64,000 bases of DNA from Shigella phage vB_SdyM_006, in sequence record MK295204. One strand, given 5' to 3'. The translations under genes were made by a program, and so were the position numbers. Shown piece by piece: positions 4,484-11,717 of this stretch (position 1 is its first letter; the number at the start of each line of letters is the position of its first letter). Under the pieces are notes generated by a model. The model did no database searches. It was not told the DNA's origin and worked only from the letters and a program-made list of their open reading frames with translations.

Positions 4484-5027
4484 CGGGGTTAGATTGAGTT
4501 TCTGCTTTAAGTAATTCATAAAAATCATCCAATGTCGGTCCTGTATCATCAGCCTTTTTTGACCCGCTAGATTTAACAGAACTTTCATAAGAGTTTAATT
4601 TATCATATATGTCTTGTATAAACGTTTCGTCTGCAATTTGAGATAAATCTGTATCAAATTCATCATAAACGTTATGGACAAAGTAGCTATATTTTATTGC
4701 CATTTCTTTTCGTTCTTTTTTAATACGCTGAACAAATGCATTAAAACAAGCCTTAGTGATGTAAGCATGTGGATTATTATATTTCTTCTCATCAAAGCCA
4801 TATAAACCTTTTATAGTAGCTTCAATACCGTCCCAATACATTTCTTGTTTCCAATCAGGTGTATATCCAGAAAAGTTATAACGATAGGAAAGGCCTTCAG
4901 CTATAAGCATAATAGCGCGTCCAATAGAATCAGGGATTTTTACCTGATAACCAGCATCATAACAGTCTTGTTTCCACTTACAAATTTCTTTATATAATTC
5001 TTTATTGTTAATATAATTATTCATCAA
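4476..5027 (-). CDS. 55: Late-transcription sigma factor gp55
   Basis: 183 aa (T4 gp55 is 185 aa); sequence resembles T4 gp55; T4-like position. Confidence 0.85.
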
Positions 5028-5040
5028 GAACCTCCAAGTT

Positions 5041-5235
5041 AATTATATACAAAAATAATATTTTGCATTTGCAATCAAGGAGCTGCGCTCCTTGATATTT
5101 TTATTATTTTATTAAGTTCTTTATATATTATATATAACTATTAAGTAATAAATTAGTAACTCTAGTAAATTAATTTATTAAAAGTCTAGTATATTCTATA
5201 TAACTATTAAGTAATAAATTAATAACTCTATGTTA
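5041..5235. repeat. Intergenic repeat module copy A: GC-clamp stem-loop (GGAGC-TGC-GCTCC) plus two copies of an AT-rich promoter-like unit
   Basis: Core unit tatataactattaagtaataaatta occurs twice here and twice at 40474-40664; the stem-loop plus T-run is shared by both loci. Confidence 0.7.
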
Positions 5236-6657
5236 CTATTTTCTGGTATGTTCTATCCAGTCTTTTACTATTTTTTGATCTTCTATATTATCAGGGTCTA
5301 ATTTTCTACCTAGTTTTCTTAGAAGATACATATAACGATATTTTTCTTTAGTAGTCATTTCGTATTGTTTTTGAAATGATAATCGCTTTCTTGTTTGTTT
5401 TGCTTTAGGAACTTCTAACATGTAATCAGTACAGATAGTAGCATTTTTAAAATACTTATCTTTTATATACTTTGCTAATCTCATATCAGGAACAAATAAA
5501 TTAACTTTTTTATTGCTTTTATTGACCCGGATATTAGTTCTTGCACATAATTGAAAAGCCGGTTCAAGATATTTTGATACTATATAAGCGTTAACTAATT
5601 CATCTTCTTCTAACCCTGCTGATATAGCAAGTTCTTTTAGTATAGGAATTTGCCATGGTAATGGGTTAAAGCTAAACATGACTACAACGTTCCTATAATC
5701 CGTATAGGAGTTTAATCCATGTGGGTTATATGGAACTTCAAGTCCTTTATTAAAACGCGCCCTGTATGAATTCCTGGTGTATATAAATGGCTCATCTCCA
5801 ATTAACCCGTCAAGAATATTTTTGATTCTGGAATAATTGGTTAAACCATCAATTTCTTTATCAGCATTATGTTTAGACCAAGAATTTTCAAACATAACGT
5901 TTATTTGGATTCTTGAAGTATTAGAATATTCTTTAAATACGAGTTTATCTTCTAGAGGTGATTTAACAAAATCCCATTTGTTAAAATATTTTAGAATTTT
6001 ACCAGTAAAAGTGTCTTCTATATTTGCTGCAGAAATAGTTACTTTATCAAAAACTTCCCAATCTTTACTAGACACGTCATTAATAAAATAGCATGTTGCG
6101 CCAGATTCCGTTTTAGATATTTTTGTTGGAATACCTTGTAATAAAGCTTTGTATAAAGGGAGTAAACTCACACAGATATCATCTAATTGGTTAATACCCT
6201 GTAATGCAAGTTCTTCTATTTCTTCTTTATATTTTTCATCTAAAATAAGATCTGATAATCCATCACTTATAGGAAGACAATATTTAAGGATTTCTTCTAA
6301 ATTATGAGAAAACGTAAATTTATTAAATGACACTAATTCTGGGACTTCATCAATATATAGACTAAATCCTTTGAACTTACTAAAATCCGTAATTGATAAC
6401 AATGCAGAATGAGTTATAAACAAAACATCTGCTTGTGTTTCTTCAATAGCTTTATTAACAGACTTTGAGCCAAGTTTATTGTCAGAATCAATTAATACCC
6501 CTTGTCCGCCCAACGAGCAAAAATAATCAAAGGATTGCTTAGACAAAAGCCTCGATATCGAGGCTATAATTGATTTTTCTTTTTTATTGACAATATTTTC
6601 TACAATGGCTTTAGTCTTTCCAGCAGCTGGAATTGCTTTTAAGACTTCAATTTTCAT
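5236..6657 (-). CDS. P-loop NTPase of unknown function
   Basis: 473 aa; Walker A-like AIPAAGKTKA near N-terminus and Walker B-like LYIDEV about 90 aa later; large C-terminal region with no recognised motif. Confidence 0.6.
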   Translation of the reverse strand: MKIEVLKAIPAAGKTKAIVENIVNKKEKSIIASISRLLSKQSFDYFCSLGGQGVLIDSDNKLGSKSVNKAIEETQADVLFITHSALLSITDFSKFKGFSLYIDEVPELVSFNKFTFSHNLEEILKYCLPISDGLSDLILDEKYKEEIEELALQGINQLDDICVSLLPLYKALLQGIPTKISKTESGATCYFINDVSSKDWEVFDKVTISAANIEDTFTGKILKYFNKWDFVKSPLEDKLVFKEYSNTSRIQINVMFENSWSKHNADKEIDGLTNYSRIKNILDGLIGDEPFIYTRNSYRARFNKGLEVPYNPHGLNSYTDYRNVVVMFSFNPLPWQIPILKELAISAGLEEDELVNAYIVSKYLEPAFQLCARTNIRVNKSNKKVNLFVPDMRLAKYIKDKYFKNATICTDYMLEVPKAKQTRKRLSFQKQYEMTTKEKYRYMYLLRKLGRKLDPDNIEDQKIVKDWIEHTRK

Positions 6658-6974
6658 TATTTAAATCCATTTGCACGTAATTTTTTATATTTACGAATAC
6701 CTTTTGTAGTAATTTCTGTAGGACCTTGGATATTAGGCTCGACACCAAATGCCTGAATACCAAAGTTATTTAGAATAGACTCTACCATAATTTCTCTAAT
6801 ACCTGTTTTAGAAATTTGGTGATGGTCTTTGTTAAGAGAGGAATGAAGCTTTTGTTCATGTATATCTAAAAATCTTGGAGTTACAATTTTATCTTCACTT
6901 AATAATTCTTCAGCGATAGGAAAAATATAATTTTTAATTTCATTGCGAAGTAACTTACTCATAATCATCTCCAA
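6657..6974 (-). CDS. Hypothetical protein
   Basis: 105-aa ORF translationally coupled to neighbours. Confidence 0.45.
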   Translation of the reverse strand: MEMIMSKLLRNEIKNYIFPIAEELLSEDKIVTPRFLDIHEQKLHSSLNKDHHQISKTGIREIMVESILNNFGIQAFGVEPNIQGPTEITTKGIRKYKKLRANGFK

Positions 6975-7233
6975 TATATTTTTTTAATCCAGATAAACCA
7001 CCAACTGATTTATCATTAATGAATATTTGTGGGTATATAATACTAAGGTTTTGTTTATTAAGCATTTTTGCTAGAGAAATAATTGTTTCTCTGTGATAAT
7101 CAAATCCTTCTGGTGTATTATATAGAACCGGGATAAAAGTGTACTCTAATTTATGTTCTTCACATAATCTAACAGCTTCTTTACATGAATAACAACGACC
7201 AACTTCTTCAGGAATGCCATAAATTATTATCAT
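6955..7233 (-). CDS. nrdH: Glutaredoxin-like protein (NrdH-type)
   Basis: 92 aa with CYSC active-site motif near N-terminus and glutaredoxin-fold pattern; adjacent to nrdG/nrdD. Confidence 0.75.
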   Translation of the reverse strand: MIIIYGIPEEVGRCYSCKEAVRLCEEHKLEYTFIPVLYNTPEGFDYHRETIISLAKMLNKQNLSIIYPQIFINDKSVGGLSGLKKYIGDDYE

Positions 7234-7466
7234 AAAAATTTAGTAAGGCCAACATTCATATAAAATCTATGTTTGATATTAGGACCTTTAACTTCAATTG
7301 CCATTTTGTCATAAATTATCCAAATATACTGATAATCTACATCAGAAGGGAGATTGAACATATTATTGTCTTCTAATTTAGCATTTAAAAATTTAATGCT
7401 TAAAAAGCCTAATCCAAAGTCACATTCTTCCCAACTTCGGATTCCTAGTTGTTCTTCAATTGTCAT
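7230..7466 (-). CDS. Hypothetical protein, paralog of the 7468-7710 ORF
   Basis: 78 aa; shares N-terminal G-I-x-S-W-E motif with the adjacent ORF. Confidence 0.45.
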   Translation of the reverse strand: MTIEEQLGIRSWEECDFGLGFLSIKFLNAKLEDNNMFNLPSDVDYQYIWIIYDKMAIEVKGPNIKHRFYMNVGLTKFL

Positions 7467-7467
7467 A

Positions 7468-7710
7468 TTATTCTCTTTCTAAAATAAATTTTTTAATATT
7501 GTAATCTATACCATCAGATTCTTCAACGTCTTTAACATTGAAGCCATCGCCATAATAAGTTATAGAATAATAATTAGGCAAATTTTCTGGTTTAGGAGGC
7601 AATCCAAATATGTTATTTTCTTTTAGGACAACACCACAAAAACATTCTTGTTCTCTATCAAACCAATCAGATTCCCAGCTTTCAATACCATAAGCATCAT
7701 CTAAAATCAT
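7468..7710 (-). CDS. Hypothetical protein, paralog of the 7230-7466 ORF
   Basis: 80 aa; YGIESWESDWF motif. Confidence 0.45.
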   Translation of the reverse strand: MILDDAYGIESWESDWFDREQECFCGVVLKENNIFGLPPKPENLPNYYSITYYGDGFNVKDVEESDGIDYNIKKFILERE

Positions 7711-7718
7711 AATAACCC

Positions 7719-8195
7719 CTAGTTATAGTTAACCCATTTATTATTAATTTTTCTATACATTTTTTGATTATCTGAACCACGATAAGGCTTATCAGTTGGT
7801 TTAGTATAGTCATACTTTCCATCTATAATAACATCAACATACTCTAAAAGCTCTAAGGCTTCTTCTGGGATATCATTAAATTCATATCCGGTCCAAAGCC
7901 ATACATCTTTCCCTGTTTGTTCTTTAACTTTTTTACAGATATCAATAACGGATTTAATGTTAGAACGATACAAAGGGTCGCCGCCTGTGATTGTTAAACC
8001 TTTAATATATGATTTATTAACCATAGAGATTAAATCGTCTAGAGTTGATTCTGTGAACTCCTGTCCATTACGCTGGTTCCAAGTAGACTTGTTATAGCAT
8101 TGTTCACATTTATGAGAACATCCAGTAACAAAAAGGACCGTTCTAAATCCTTCGCCGTTTAAAGAATCACATGGGACAAGTGATGCATAATTCAT
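7719..8195 (-). CDS. nrdG: Anaerobic ribonucleotide reductase activating protein NrdG (radical SAM)
   Basis: GCSHKCEQCYNKSTW cluster typical of NrdG; start trimmed to MNYASLVPCDS so the 8216-8230 hairpin lies upstream. Confidence 0.85.
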   Translation of the reverse strand: MNYASLVPCDSLNGEGFRTVLFVTGCSHKCEQCYNKSTWNQRNGQEFTESTLDDLISMVNKSYIKGLTITGGDPLYRSNIKSVIDICKKVKEQTGKDVWLWTGYEFNDIPEEALELLEYVDVIIDGKYDYTKPTDKPYRGSDNQKMYRKINNKWVNYN

Positions 8196-8210
8196 TTTAT
8201 TCTCCATACC

Positions 8211-8232
8211 AAAAAGGACCCGAAGGTCCTTA
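8211..8232 (-). terminator. GC-clamp tetraloop hairpin (GGACC-CGAA-GGTCC) followed by U-run on minus strand
   Basis: Read directly; sits between the 8234-8566 ORF and nrdG. Confidence 0.45.
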
Positions 8233-8233
8233 A

Positions 8234-8566
8234 TTAACAATAAGCGTAGCATTCATTAGATTTTTTCTTATATACAGAATCACTATTTGTCCAGTCAACA
8301 TCTTCGGGGTCAAAATAACATTCTGCATCTTCATATGAACTTTCTAATCTAAGAGCTTTATGGGCAATTAGACGTTTGTCAGAACGAGATATTTTAGCTT
8401 GAACATTTTTAACTTCGGAAGAGATTCCTTTCCAACGTTTAGGTTTATCAGAGTGAAAAATATTATTTGATACTTCTGTTTGACAGATATTACCACGTGG
8501 TTTTCTTGAAGTAACATCATAATAACCATTATTTTTAACAGTTTTTCTTCTAATAGTTTTACCCAT
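8234..8566 (-). CDS. Hypothetical basic protein
   Basis: 110 aa, lysine/arginine-rich N-terminus; inserted between nrdD and nrdG. Confidence 0.45.
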   Translation of the reverse strand: MGKTIRRKTVKNNGYYDVTSRKPRGNICQTEVSNNIFHSDKPKRWKGISSEVKNVQAKISRSDKRLIAHKALRLESSYEDAECYFDPEDVDWTNSDSVYKKKSNECYAYC

Positions 8567-8575
8567 ATTAATTCC

Positions 8576-8839
8576 TTATGCTAAATGTCTACTCAAATGC
8601 GAAAACCCATTATCTTCTAACTTTTTAATATTTCTTTCTAAAGAATCTTTGTCGTATACAAAATACCCATCATCGGCTTTTATAATAGTACTTTGGCCAG
8701 TTTCAGGGTCTCTTGCAATAGCCAAACCAATATGATGAAGGACTGTTGTATTAATAAAATACAAAAGACCTAAATCCGACATATCATTCCAGTCTAATTC
8801 TGGTTTTTCTGGAATAATATTAATTCCTCTTTGTTGCAT
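8576..8839 (-). CDS. Hypothetical protein
   Basis: 87-aa ORF between nrdD and nrdG. Confidence 0.45.
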   Translation of the reverse strand: MQQRGINIIPEKPELDWNDMSDLGLLYFINTTVLHHIGLAIARDPETGQSTIIKADDGYFVYDKDSLERNIKKLEDNGFSHLSRHLA

Positions 8840-8849
8840 ATATTAATCC

Positions 8850-9041
8850 TTAAAACAATTGGATTCGTTCTTCTAAAATATTTTCATATTCTATCATAGT
8901 GTTTAATTGAACTGTTAATAAAGCTTGTTCTTTTTCACTTAAAGAGTTAAACATGTCGGTCGTTCTAAAAGATGATAATTTATAAATTTTATCACTTAAT
9001 TCGGTCTTTTCATCAATTACTCGTTGTTGATGTGGTTGCAT
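8850..9041 (-). CDS. Hypothetical protein
   Basis: 63-aa ORF immediately after nrdD. Confidence 0.4.
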   Translation of the reverse strand: MQPHQQRVIDEKTELSDKIYKLSSFRTTDMFNSLSEKEQALLTVQLNTMIEYENILEERIQLF

Positions 9042-9084
9042 ATATTAATCCTTTATCAAATCCAGTGGCAGGATGCCATGGTAA

Positions 9085-10956
9085 TTAGTCTAATTTATCA
9101 TTTAATATTGGTTTAGCAATATGTTTTGTTCTATGGATAACTTCTTTTTGTTTACCTTCGTTAAACCCACGAGAAGCAGGATTTCCAAGATATCCACAGG
9201 TACGACGGACAACAGACATTTTCTTTACATCCATTTCACCACATTTTGGACATTTAAACCCATTTTCTGTAGGAATAAATTCTCCATGGAATTCACATGT
9301 AAAGCATTGGTCAACAGGAGTATTTGTTCCAAAATAATCTAGATTTTCTACAGCATAATCCCAGACCTGTTCTAATGCATCAAGATTATCCTTCATATTA
9401 GGGAGCTCAACATAAGAAATATGACCACCAGATGCAATACGGTGATAATCCTTTTCAAATTCAATTTTCTCAAATGGATTAACTTTACGTTCAACATCAA
9501 GATGGAAACTATTTGTGTACCAACCTTTATCTGTAATTCCTTTAACAGAACCAAATTCTGCTTTATCTAATTTGCAGAATCTGTGACATAAACTTTCTGC
9601 GGGAGTAGAATAAAGACTAAATGCATATCCAGTTTCTTCTTTCCATTTAGAAAGATAATAATTTATTTCTTTAAGAATATGTTTACCAAATTCTTGGGCT
9701 TCTTTATTATCAAATGGTTCATCATTAAAAATCAGTTTTAATGTTTCGTGTAAACCAATATATCCTAGCGAAATAGAACTTCGTCCATTTTTAAATAATG
9801 ATAATATTTCGTCATTAGGGTTCATACGAACACCAAAAGCGCCACCACAATATAAAATTGGAGCTACAGAAGCTTTTGCACCACGTAAAGAATCAATTCT
9901 AGTCATAAGAGCAGTATAACAGAGGCCAAGACGATCTCTCAATGATTGGATATATGATTCTTTAGATAAATTGTCACTACCTAATTCCAGGGCTATTCTA
10001 GGAAGATTTAATGTGACTACACCTAGATTATTGCGTCCATCTAAAATTTCTTTGCCATTTTCTTTATAGACACTTAAAAAAGATCTACACCCCATAGGAG
10101 AAACTGGGACCGAACTACCGGTTATTTCTTTATTAATTTTAGACGAAATAATATCTGGGTACATTCTTTTAGCTGAACATTCTAATGCTAATTTTTTAAT
10201 AAAATAATTAGGGTCTTCAGGTTTAAGATTAATTCCTTCTTCAATAAAGAAGACTAATTTAGGAAATATCGCAGTTACTTCATCTTTGCCTAAGCCTTTA
10301 ATTCTATTTTTAAGAATAGCTTCTTGGATAACTGTGCCGGCCCATGAAGTAGAAGTTCCAAAAGAAATAGTCACAAATGGCGTTTGTCCATTAGAGCTAA
10401 AAAGCGTATTTATTTCATATTCATACGCTTGGAAAGCGTCATAAACATCTTTTTCTGTCTTCTTCATAGCATAATCTTCCCAATCAGGAATACGCCATTC
10501 AAAAGCTTCATTAAGATGTTTTTGGTATGTAGCTTCTACGTAAGGCTCAAGAACAACATCAACATTTGCAAATGTTGTTCCACCATATTGATGAGAAGCA
10601 ACTTGGGCTGTGACTTGGGCCATAATTGCACAAGCTACACCAATTGATTTAGGTGTTTCTATTTCCGCGTTACCAAGCTTAAATCCATTTTCAAACATGC
10701 CTTTTAAATCAACTAAACAACAATTTGTAAAAGGCAGTGATACACTATAATCTAAGTCATGATAATGAATAATACCTTTGTCGTGTGCTTCTACGACATT
10801 AGAAGGCAATCTACTACGAGCCACGTACTTGGAAGCAATTCCGGCCAGTAAGTCACGTTGAGTAGGAAAGACACCATAGGGCTTGTTTGCATTTTCTGTA
10901 GAAAGTTCATTTGATTCACGATTACATACCTCATTAATTTGAGAAATTAAGTTCAT
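9085..10956 (-). CDS. nrdD: Anaerobic ribonucleoside-triphosphate reductase NrdD (glycyl radical enzyme)
   Basis: 623 aa; C-terminal glycyl radical motif RTCGYLG and Zn-ribbon CxxC pairs; continuous ORF with no intron interruption. Confidence 0.95.
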   Translation of the reverse strand: MNLISQINEVCNRESNELSTENANKPYGVFPTQRDLLAGIASKYVARSRLPSNVVEAHDKGIIHYHDLDYSVSLPFTNCCLVDLKGMFENGFKLGNAEIETPKSIGVACAIMAQVTAQVASHQYGGTTFANVDVVLEPYVEATYQKHLNEAFEWRIPDWEDYAMKKTEKDVYDAFQAYEYEINTLFSSNGQTPFVTISFGTSTSWAGTVIQEAILKNRIKGLGKDEVTAIFPKLVFFIEEGINLKPEDPNYFIKKLALECSAKRMYPDIISSKINKEITGSSVPVSPMGCRSFLSVYKENGKEILDGRNNLGVVTLNLPRIALELGSDNLSKESYIQSLRDRLGLCYTALMTRIDSLRGAKASVAPILYCGGAFGVRMNPNDEILSLFKNGRSSISLGYIGLHETLKLIFNDEPFDNKEAQEFGKHILKEINYYLSKWKEETGYAFSLYSTPAESLCHRFCKLDKAEFGSVKGITDKGWYTNSFHLDVERKVNPFEKIEFEKDYHRIASGGHISYVELPNMKDNLDALEQVWDYAVENLDYFGTNTPVDQCFTCEFHGEFIPTENGFKCPKCGEMDVKKMSVVRRTCGYLGNPASRGFNEGKQKEVIHRTKHIAKPILNDKLD

Positions 10957-11423
10957 TTTAAAGATTTCCTTAAAGCTTTTTTGTATCTTTTAGTTAACTC
11001 GGTTTTTGTATCTGTTTCTAGATATTCAAATCCGTGTAATACCATTTCTTCTATCATTTCTTCTTTAGACAACCGAGAAAACTCTTTAGATTTGTCTATT
11101 ATATACTGTGGATGGATAGGATTTTCACTGCTGTCTTTTTTTAAGTAAAATAAAAGGTTCTCCATCCAATTAATATATTCTACTTTAGATTTTAGTCCTG
11201 AACGATTAAATTTATGCTTCAACTGTCCTTCTGCTGCATTACATAAAGGGCATAATAATCCACGAACTCTTCCAGCTTCAGGACCAGATAACGCATGGTC
11301 ATGGTCCAAATGATTTTTTTGAACATCTTTATCTAATTCTAAACGACAAATACAACAAAGGCCCTTTTGGGCCTTATATAATTTTTCTTTTTCTTGTTTA
11401 AATGATTTTCCGGATAATAACAT
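10953..11423 (-). CDS. 49: Endonuclease VII (Holliday junction resolvase) gp49
   Basis: 156 aa, near-colinear with T4 endo VII (CCICRLELDKDVQKNHLDHDH..GLLCPLCNAAEGQ). Confidence 0.9.
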   Translation of the reverse strand: MLLSGKSFKQEKEKLYKAQKGLCCICRLELDKDVQKNHLDHDHALSGPEAGRVRGLLCPLCNAAEGQLKHKFNRSGLKSKVEYINWMENLLFYLKKDSSENPIHPQYIIDKSKEFSRLSKEEMIEEMVLHGFEYLETDTKTELTKRYKKALRKSLK

Positions 11424-11462
11424 TATAACCCCTATAATTTATCATATAGAGGTATTTATTAA

Positions 11463-11717
11463 TCACCAAACCAAATATTGTGGAGTCAGCTTTTTAGTAT
11501 ACTTAATAAGATTTCTTATTTGTTTTCTTGTAGGTTTAACATCAAAAACATTTAAAGCCACACGTTCATGTGGATATTCACCCACTTTAACTTTTAATGT
11601 CCATCCTAAAACTATATGTGGAGCCATTTTACAATAAGAAATTTGTACCTTTACCGGATTTTTAGCATCATTACTTGAATACTGTATAATTGATGGTGTA
11701 TTAATTTCATAGCTCAT
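11463..11717 (-). CDS. Hypothetical protein
   Basis: 84-aa ORF between nrdC and 49. Confidence 0.45.
   Translation of the reverse strand: MSYEINTPSIIQYSSNDAKNPVKVQISYCKMAPHIVLGWTLKVKVGEYPHERVALNVFDVKPTRKQIRNLIKYTKKLTPQYLVW

Follow-up and report, generated by a model that had tools for sequence, protein, structure and literature searches.

Tandem paralogous genes for small acidic proteins between nrdG and an nrdH-like glutaredoxin gene in a T4-like phage

Arn, Dmd and AsiA are small acidic early proteins of the T-even phages that inhibit host proteins. The nrd region of T4 is pre-replicative, and T4-like genomes are familiar for plastic regions in which small accessory genes have been duplicated in tandem. 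In T4 the position between nrdG and nrdH is taken by gp55.8, a protein of 70 residues that is annotated as a predicted membrane protein. The two genes considered here, ORF A and ORF B, occupy the equivalent interval and belong to families that have already been deposited and clustered as unknowns, namely phrog_25232 (the proteins referred to below as A-type and C-type) and phrog_25236 (B-type), both labelled 'unknown function'. The literature searched contains no mention of these genes or PHROGs, and the nrd region is not discussed in the genome paper of the Morganella phage MP1.

The window that was analysed is a single stretch of DNA of 64 kb, which across bases 6600–8600 is 99.7% identical to the genome of the Proteus phage phiP4-3 (MG696114; Straboviridae, Bragavirus). 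The initial annotation placed two adjacent ORFs of 78–80 residues at 7230–7710, and these coordinates are exact (Table 1). The counterparts in phiP4-3 are phiP43_210 (ORF A, 100% identical at the protein level) and phiP43_211 (ORF B), both of which are recorded in GenBank as hypothetical proteins. The setting between nrdG and nrdH is likewise correct, with a Fer4_12 match upstream and an NrdH-like glutaredoxin downstream; the latter also matches the thioredoxin domain family phrog_22 (E = 1.7e-10) and the Pfam Glutaredoxin model. At the 3′ end of nrdD (8990–9130, with the stop at 9085) the gene in the window ends in GAC TAA whereas MG696114 reads GAA GAA, and the nrdD gene annotated in MG696114 is 24 codons longer and overlaps the next gene. 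There are seven substitutions in these 141 nt, compared with the 99.7% identity nearby, so that the window and phiP4-3 are close variants and not one and the same sequence.

Several neighbouring genes are worth recording in their own right. The two small conserved genes between nrdD and nrdG match DUF5499 (E = 2e-14) and DUF7415 (E = 7.5e-9), and the DUF5499 protein is itself fast-evolving (56–58% identity within Bragavirus). A 63-residue ORF just downstream of nrdD matches a Pfam family named for a crAss001 protein. No gene of the block is more conserved than that of the 473-residue protein, which shows 92–95% amino-acid identity within Bragavirus and 69–74% to Gualtarvirus, and adjoins gp55 in Bragavirus, Gualtarvirus and the Providencia phage PSTCR6; the stretch of T4 that was fetched has no gene of this size beside gene 55.

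Table 1. Features of the nrdG–nrdH region. Coordinates are positions in the 64-kb window; the ORFs, motifs and flanking genes all lie on the minus strand.
Feature	Position	Strand	Properties and basis
473-aa protein	5236-6657	-	Walker A motif AAGKTK; sub-threshold Pfam DEAD-helicase match, E 5e-4
nrdH-like glutaredoxin, downstream flank	6955..7233	-	92 aa; 41% identity to T4 NrdH, E 6e-20
ATGA overlap, ORF B stop/nrdH-like glutaredoxin start	7230..7233	-	Read from sequence
ORF B (B-type, second tandem copy)	7230..7466	-	78 aa, pI 4.94; ORF call
G-I-R-S-W-E motif, ORF B residues 8-13	7428..7445	-	Six-frame regex scan
A/B junction, TAA-T-ATG	7464..7470	-	Gap of 1 base from A stop to B start; read from sequence
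ORF A (A-type, first tandem copy)	7468..7710	-	80 aa, pI 4.15; ORF call
G-I-E-S-W-E motif, ORF A residues 8-13	7672..7689	-	Six-frame regex scan
nrdG stop/ORF A start region	7711..7721	-	Read from sequence
nrdG (anaerobic RNR activase), upstream flank	7719..8195	-	Pfam Fer4_12 E 4.5e-45; phrog_626 E 7e-63; GenBank annotation, start taken from phiP4-3
GC-rich hairpin (AAGGACCTTCGGGTCCTT) and T-run, just upstream of nrdG, between DUF5499 gene and nrdG start	8214..8231	-	Terminator scan and sequence
Two small conserved genes between nrdD and nrdG	8234-8566; 8576-8839	-	
63-aa ORF just downstream of nrdD	8850-9041	-	Pfam PF21825 'crAss001_48 related protein', E 6e-21

The genes nrdG, A, B and nrdH form a tightly packed block on one strand with overlapping stops and starts. 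The nrdG stop codon TAG (7719–7721) overlaps a Shine–Dalgarno-like AGGGG (7716–7720) that precedes the ATG start of ORF A by five bases. At the other end of the pair, the ATGA overlap suggests that ORF B and the glutaredoxin gene are translationally coupled, and the same overlapping layout is annotated in the phages SJ_PmiM, PM2, PSTRCR_127, MP1 and PSTCR6. The T4 late-promoter motif TATAAATA was not found in 5000–11500, which fits pre-replicative expression as in the nrd region of T4, and the four genes probably constitute a pre-replicative operon. A σ70 promoter scan was uninformative (33 sites found compared with 36 expected from shuffled sequences), and no promoter is therefore claimed. 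Ahead of the four genes, the hairpin upstream of nrdG could act in termination, attenuation or RNA stabilization, and possibly marks the 5′ boundary of their transcription unit or attenuates it; the records of MP1 and of the Proteus phage Pm5461 carry an annotated terminator in the matching region.

ORF A and ORF B are real protein-coding genes and genuine tandem paralogues, although the similarity between them is weak. A pairwise alignment, which the initial annotation had named as a check on the proposed duplication, is significant by several measures. BLASTP gave E = 1e-4 with 31% identity, limited to residues 1–39/41 and interrupted by a large gap. The Smith–Waterman score of 54 compares with a mean of 24.9 ± 4.6 for shuffled sequences (z = 6.4, with none of 5000 shuffles scoring as high), and global alignment extends the similarity to the full length at ~27% identity (z = 6.0). 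Comparison of the profile of the A-type orthologues with that of the B-type orthologues using hhalign gave a probability of 97.1% (E = 5.4e-11), and each protein also matches the PHROG of the other (E = 0.0017 and 0.095). These pairwise and profile statistics, together with the shared predicted fold described below, establish the homology of A and B, and phrog_25232 and phrog_25236 are accordingly treated here as homologous, whereas they are kept separate in PHROGs.

The shared N-terminal G-I-x-S-W-E motif is present at the same residues in both proteins, and in the six-frame translation of the window the pattern GI.SWE matches only these two ORFs. The G-I-E-S-W-E of ORF A lines up with the superfamily signature LGIxSWEGWD. 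Both proteins contain the broader N-terminal motif GI(x)SW/Y(E/D) and a loop motif, L-x-E/K-x-N-x-F/Y-x-L-P. The invariant columns of the family are I9, L29, N33, L37 and P38, with G8 nearly invariant. A Phe-rich core had also been described, and here the enrichment is only modest: Phe makes up 6.2% of A and 7.7% of B compared with 5.0% in the long ORFs of the window, the sum of Phe, Tyr and Trp is 16% and 15% compared with 11% in the same background, and three Phe positions are aligned between the two proteins.

Models of both proteins were predicted with AF2. The model of ORF B has a pLDDT of 87.8 and a pTM of 0.77 and comprises an N-terminal helix and six strands; the model of ORF A has a pLDDT of 65.6. 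The order of elements is common to the two: the chain opens with a short helix at the N-terminus and continues through a hairpin, one long strand and an extended loop to three more strands. The four highest-ranking BFVD entries were also identical for the two models, and MP1 proteins of both types were among them. A and B are thus predicted to share a fold, a short helix followed by a six-stranded β-structure, in which the conserved L-K-E-N-N-x-F-G-L-P segment forms the loop between strands 3 and 4. Foldseek found no match in the PDB at E <= 0.001, and the best 50 matches listed begin at E = 0.44. All members of the family are acidic (pI ~4.05–4.95) and short (73–90 residues); ORF A has 18 Asp and Glu residues compared with seven Lys and Arg residues. 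A and B are soluble proteins, hydrophilic to neutral with GRAVY values of −0.60 (A) and −0.11 (B), and no family member is hydrophobic. Between zero and four Cys residues are present per protein, none of which is conserved, and there are no invariant polar residues suggesting catalysis, the invariant positions being the loop Leu, Asn, Leu and Pro and the GI motif.

Two possible identities were considered and rejected. The segment V-V-L-K-E-N-N-I-F-G-L-P resembles the leucine-rich repeat consensus LxxLxLxxNxLxxLP, but it occurs only once per protein, no Pfam leucine-rich repeat model matched at E <= 1 and the AF2 models place it in a loop between two strands. A glutaredoxin/thioredoxin fold was suggested neither by sequence, since A and B match neither Pfam Glutaredoxin nor phrog_22 and lack a conserved Cys, nor by the predicted structures, which are mostly β-strand with only short helical segments. 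The duplication had initially been described as of unknown function, and this description stands: no match to ORF A or ORF B was found in Pfam, NCBIfam, PADLOC (at E <= 10) or the sequences of the PDB. PADLOC describes defence systems and not anti-defence proteins, and its silence says little about counter-defence.

ORF A aligns with the phrog_25232 HMM over residues 1–80 (profile positions 1–83 of 83; E = 5.2e-40) and ORF B with the phrog_25236 HMM over residues 1–77 (positions 3–79 of 80; E = 1e-45). Presence and absence in related phages, the other check proposed initially, shows that the number of copies in the slot varies from one to three. A single copy is found in PM2 and Pm5461, two in phiP4-3, SJ_PmiM and the Providencia phage PSTRCR_127, and three in MP1, the phage Rgz1 and several metagenome contigs; a scan of the window with the family HMM revealed no copy beyond A and B. 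A B-type orthologue is present in every phage of the Proteus/Providencia/Morganella T4-like clade that was examined. A-type orthologues are present in SJ_PmiM, PSTRCR_127, MP1 and Rgz1 and missing from PM2 and Pm5461, so that the A-type is dispensable while the B-type is always kept. Reading frames are open in all of the ~22 copies examined, which come from two genera, and frame conservation extends to several metagenome contigs.

Near relatives are scarce. Word-indexed profile searching of 5.8e9 proteins returned only 11 and then 14 stand-alone proteins of 73–90 residues without Pfam domains, and an exhaustive hmmsearch of 1.84e9 representatives returned six true members. Two further matches from the latter search (P0013 and P0014) were rejected on reading their sequences, as they are long repeat proteins with spurious summed matches; to judge from their sequences, they are not leucine-rich repeat proteins either. 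A search of IMG/VR returned only two genomes that were already known. More than 2000 phage records encode nrdG, and a near relative of this one is found in only ~14 of these, from the same clade.

Three types, always arranged as nrdG-(C)-(A)-B-grx, are resolved by a neighbour-joining tree and profile comparisons. At the deepest node a B clade parts from an A+C clade and, because both clades contain Bragavirus and Gualtarvirus members, the A/B duplication predates the divergence of these genera. The local duplication proposed initially is upheld in a refined form: it is ancient and not recent, the size of the array varies and the family is not an orphan. C-type genes are later derivatives of an A-like copy, and the metagenome contig L014 carries two A-like copies. 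In PM2 the A gene is cleanly absent, with the nrdG stop overlapping the ATG of B just as the nrdG stop of SJ_PmiM overlaps the ATG of A. Family members immediately precede the nrdH-like glutaredoxin gene, with which they share a strand, and follow nrdG in all loci except that of PSTCR6. The metagenome contigs L016 and L018 have the same layout as the phages, with the B-type gene overlapping the glutaredoxin start.

Two loci preserve irregularities. In the Proteus phage SJ_PmiM (L002, ~2377–2421) the A/B spacer consists of ~35 bp from the 3′ end of A repeated in tandem (TTTAATATTAAAAAGTTTGAACTAGAAAGAGATA...), which is a footprint of local slippage or recombination within the array. In PSTCR6 (L022, 1122–4720; Straboviridae) there is no nrdD or nrdG between the endonuclease VII and glutaredoxin genes, and a family member of 73 residues is kept directly upstream of the block formed by the glutaredoxin, DUF7570 and 475-residue protein genes. 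The divergence between MP1 and PSTRCR_127 is uneven along the array. The A-type proteins are 92% identical and the NrdG proteins 97%, compared with 63% for the B-type and 69% for DUF7570, a pattern that indicates recombinational mosaicism with a breakpoint inside the array.

The B-type proteins also connect the family to a wider group. Gualtarvirus B-type proteins match phrog_4991 (E = 1e-10) and phrog_4551, and the B-type profile aligns with a profile of rV5-like and jumbo-phage proteins with an hhalign probability of 97.9% (E = 5e-13, 67 columns). The A-type profile reached only 29.8% against the distant profile, and neither ORF A nor ORF B matched phrog_4991 or phrog_4551 directly at E <= 1, so that membership of A and B in this superfamily is transitive through the Gualtarvirus B-type proteins. 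Since it is the B-type profile that aligns with the superfamily and the A-type alone does not, the B-type looks ancestral and the A-type looks like a more diverged copy. Within a test set of eight sequences only, the family HMM matched proteins of UPEC06 (E = 5e-9), PSTCR6 (3e-5) and RAS14 (5e-5). A tblastn search with a Gualtarvirus B-type protein matched Stenotrophomonas jumbo phages over the full length (E = 5e-4) and, with weak E-values, rV5-like coliphages and Pseudomonas, Aeromonas and GAP32-like phages; it returned 177 records at E <= 10, some of which are likely to be spurious.

The members of phrog_4991 and phrog_4551 are uncharacterized proteins of ~85–99 residues from rV5-like Escherichia phages (Vequintavirinae), the Stenotrophomonas phages RAS14 and CM1 and the Pseudomonas phage vB_PseuGesM_254, with weaker tblastn matches (E = 1–9) in Aeromonas T4-like phages and GAP32-like giants, so that the superfamily is found in many large lytic phages. 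They resemble the Morganellaceae-phage family in length, acidity, N-terminal signature and the order of hydrophobic strands. The N-terminal signature is GIExxFIESWxGWD in the distant proteins compared with LGIxSWEGWD in the Morganellaceae-phage family, and the L-K-E-N-N-x-F-G-L-P loop is confined to the latter. At the three distant loci that were fetched the gene is single-copy and has no nrd neighbours: in RAS14 it sits within a tRNA island, in Pseudomonas phage 254 an RNA ligase gene is nearby, and in UPEC06 it follows the DNA polymerase gene. One distant member has a weak match (E = 0.001) to the C-terminus of phrog_4182, a profile of 243 positions, which is the sole clue to a fusion.

Rates of change were compared between phiP4-3 and SJ_PmiM. 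Amino-acid identity is 48–51% for A (dN = 0.43) and 40–44% for B (dN = 0.47), compared with 83% for nrdG (dN = 0.10), 84% for the nrdH-like glutaredoxin (dN = 0.11), 81–82% for DUF7570 (dN = 0.12) and 95% for the 473-residue protein (dN = 0.035). A and B thus diverge in amino-acid sequence about four times faster than the flanking genes, and their dN/dS is ~0.45 for this pair of phages, with 0.05–0.32 for the flanks. Across the family dN/dS is below 1 in every pair (0.03–0.72), from which it follows that the genes are under constraint; the lowest value, 0.03, is for B between MP1 and Rgz1, and several close pairs lie at 0.33–0.72. The counts behind the raised values are small, and relaxed constraint fits them as well as an arms race does.

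The interval between nrdG and nrdH is filled by unrelated ORFs in T4, fFiEco06, KpV477, STML-198 and Lemur, and no paralogues of the family were found in the slot of these five T4-like phages. The slot is therefore plastic, with unrelated small genes filling it in different lineages. T4 gp55.8 is like A and B in its position, strand and operon and similar to them in size, but differs in its long hydrophobic stretch; homology was rejected on the basis of an hhalign probability of 0.05%, and gp55.8 is a positional analogue only.

Our preferred reading, which we hold tentatively and at somewhat less than even probability, is that A and B are early accessory proteins without enzymatic activity whose partners are host or defence proteins, and that the nrd neighbourhood is inherited synteny. 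Under such a mechanism the proteins would work stoichiometrically, by attaching to a protein of the host or of its defences, in host takeover or counter-defence; through duplication and rapid change of sequence they would keep pace with variation in that target; and the position beside the nrd genes would reflect inherited synteny in a plastic slot and not a part in ribonucleotide reduction. A binder is favoured over an enzyme because the proteins are small (73–90 residues) and acidic, lack database matches and have no catalysis-like invariant polar residues. An accessory, fast-evolving role is suggested by the high dN, the variation from one to three copies, the loss of A and the mosaicism of the array. 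That the proteins are not tied to ribonucleotide reductase is suggested by the variable slot, the distant members without nrd neighbours and the PSTCR6 member without nrdD or nrdG. The last point has to be set against the main alternative, in which A and B would be accessory subunits or adaptors of the anaerobic ribonucleotide reductase–redoxin system that bind the NrdH-like glutaredoxin, NrdG or NrdD. The genes do lie between nrdG and nrdH, on one strand and with overlapping stops and starts. All Bragavirus, Gualtarvirus and PSTCR6 loci examined, and also L016 and L018, show the B-type gene overlapping the start of the glutaredoxin gene, and the B-type gene is directly coupled to the glutaredoxin gene in nine of the nine Morganellaceae-phage or related metagenome loci in which the downstream gene is visible, PSTCR6 included. 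It is only this invariable coupling within the clade that speaks for an adaptor, and the great majority of nrdG-encoding phages have no near relative, the other five T4-like phages carry unrelated ORFs in the slot, the three distant homologues are found away from nrd genes, PM2 and Pm5461 dispense with the A-type, A and B evolve some four times faster than their supposed partners NrdG and NrdH, and there is no Cys motif or redox signature. We consider such a role unlikely.

A narrower version of the preferred reading would make A and B acidic DNA mimics or anti-restriction-type inhibitors comparable to T4 Arn and T7 Ocr. The strong acidity of all members, their small size, probable early expression and variable copy number would suit such a function, but acidity is common in small phage proteins, conservation on the surface falls on a hydrophobic, Asn-rich loop and not on an acidic stripe, and no DNA-mimic or anti-restriction protein is among the best 50 Foldseek matches to the PDB that were listed; we regard this version as improbable. 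Very little probability is likewise given to the view that the ORFs are evolutionary leftovers, weakly constrained filler, whether expressed or not, without significant present function. The raised dN/dS of several close pairs, the loss of one copy in PM2 and Pm5461 and the sloppy duplication at the A/B junction of SJ_PmiM would all be expected of filler. Against it, the frames have stayed open in two genera, dN/dS is below 1 and falls very low when B of MP1 is compared with B of Rgz1, the core motifs have been kept, a fold is predicted with confidence and the B-type is retained in every genome. A broader proposal is that the whole GIxSW(E)GWD superfamily (phrog_4991, phrog_4551, phrog_25232 and phrog_25236), which extends across T4-like, rV5-like, jumbo and Pseudomonas myoviruses, is a widespread and previously unrecognized class of counter-defence or host-takeover inhibitors with a fold not found in the PDB. 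On this view a host-specific target would have driven the expansion to arrays of one to three copies in the Morganellaceae phages through an arms race. This proposal is speculative, and we rate it as less probable than the binding of host or defence proteins by A and B themselves, yet a little more probable than the adaptor role.

Taken together, A and B form an ordinary accessory-gene cluster and not a new system. What is new is modest: the paralogy of phrog_25232 and phrog_25236, their link to phrog_4991 and phrog_4551, and the structure of the one- to three-copy array. As it stands the result has little significance beyond tidier annotation, which now unites two hypothetical proteins of phiP4-3, with their relatives, in a single family of paralogues, joins four PHROGs and presents the nrdG–nrdH interval of T4-like phages as a plastic slot. 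The result would gain in importance if the superfamily does consist of inhibitors that bind host or defence proteins, since its members occur in many phages that are candidates for therapy (rV5-like coliphages and phages of Proteus, Providencia and Morganella) and have no solved structural relative; the natural one-, two- and three-copy variants provide a ready comparison set. The likeness of A and B to Arn, Dmd and AsiA is circumstantial, with no similarity in sequence or fold detected, and consists of a common size class, acidity, location in an early region and a lineage-restricted, rapidly evolving distribution.
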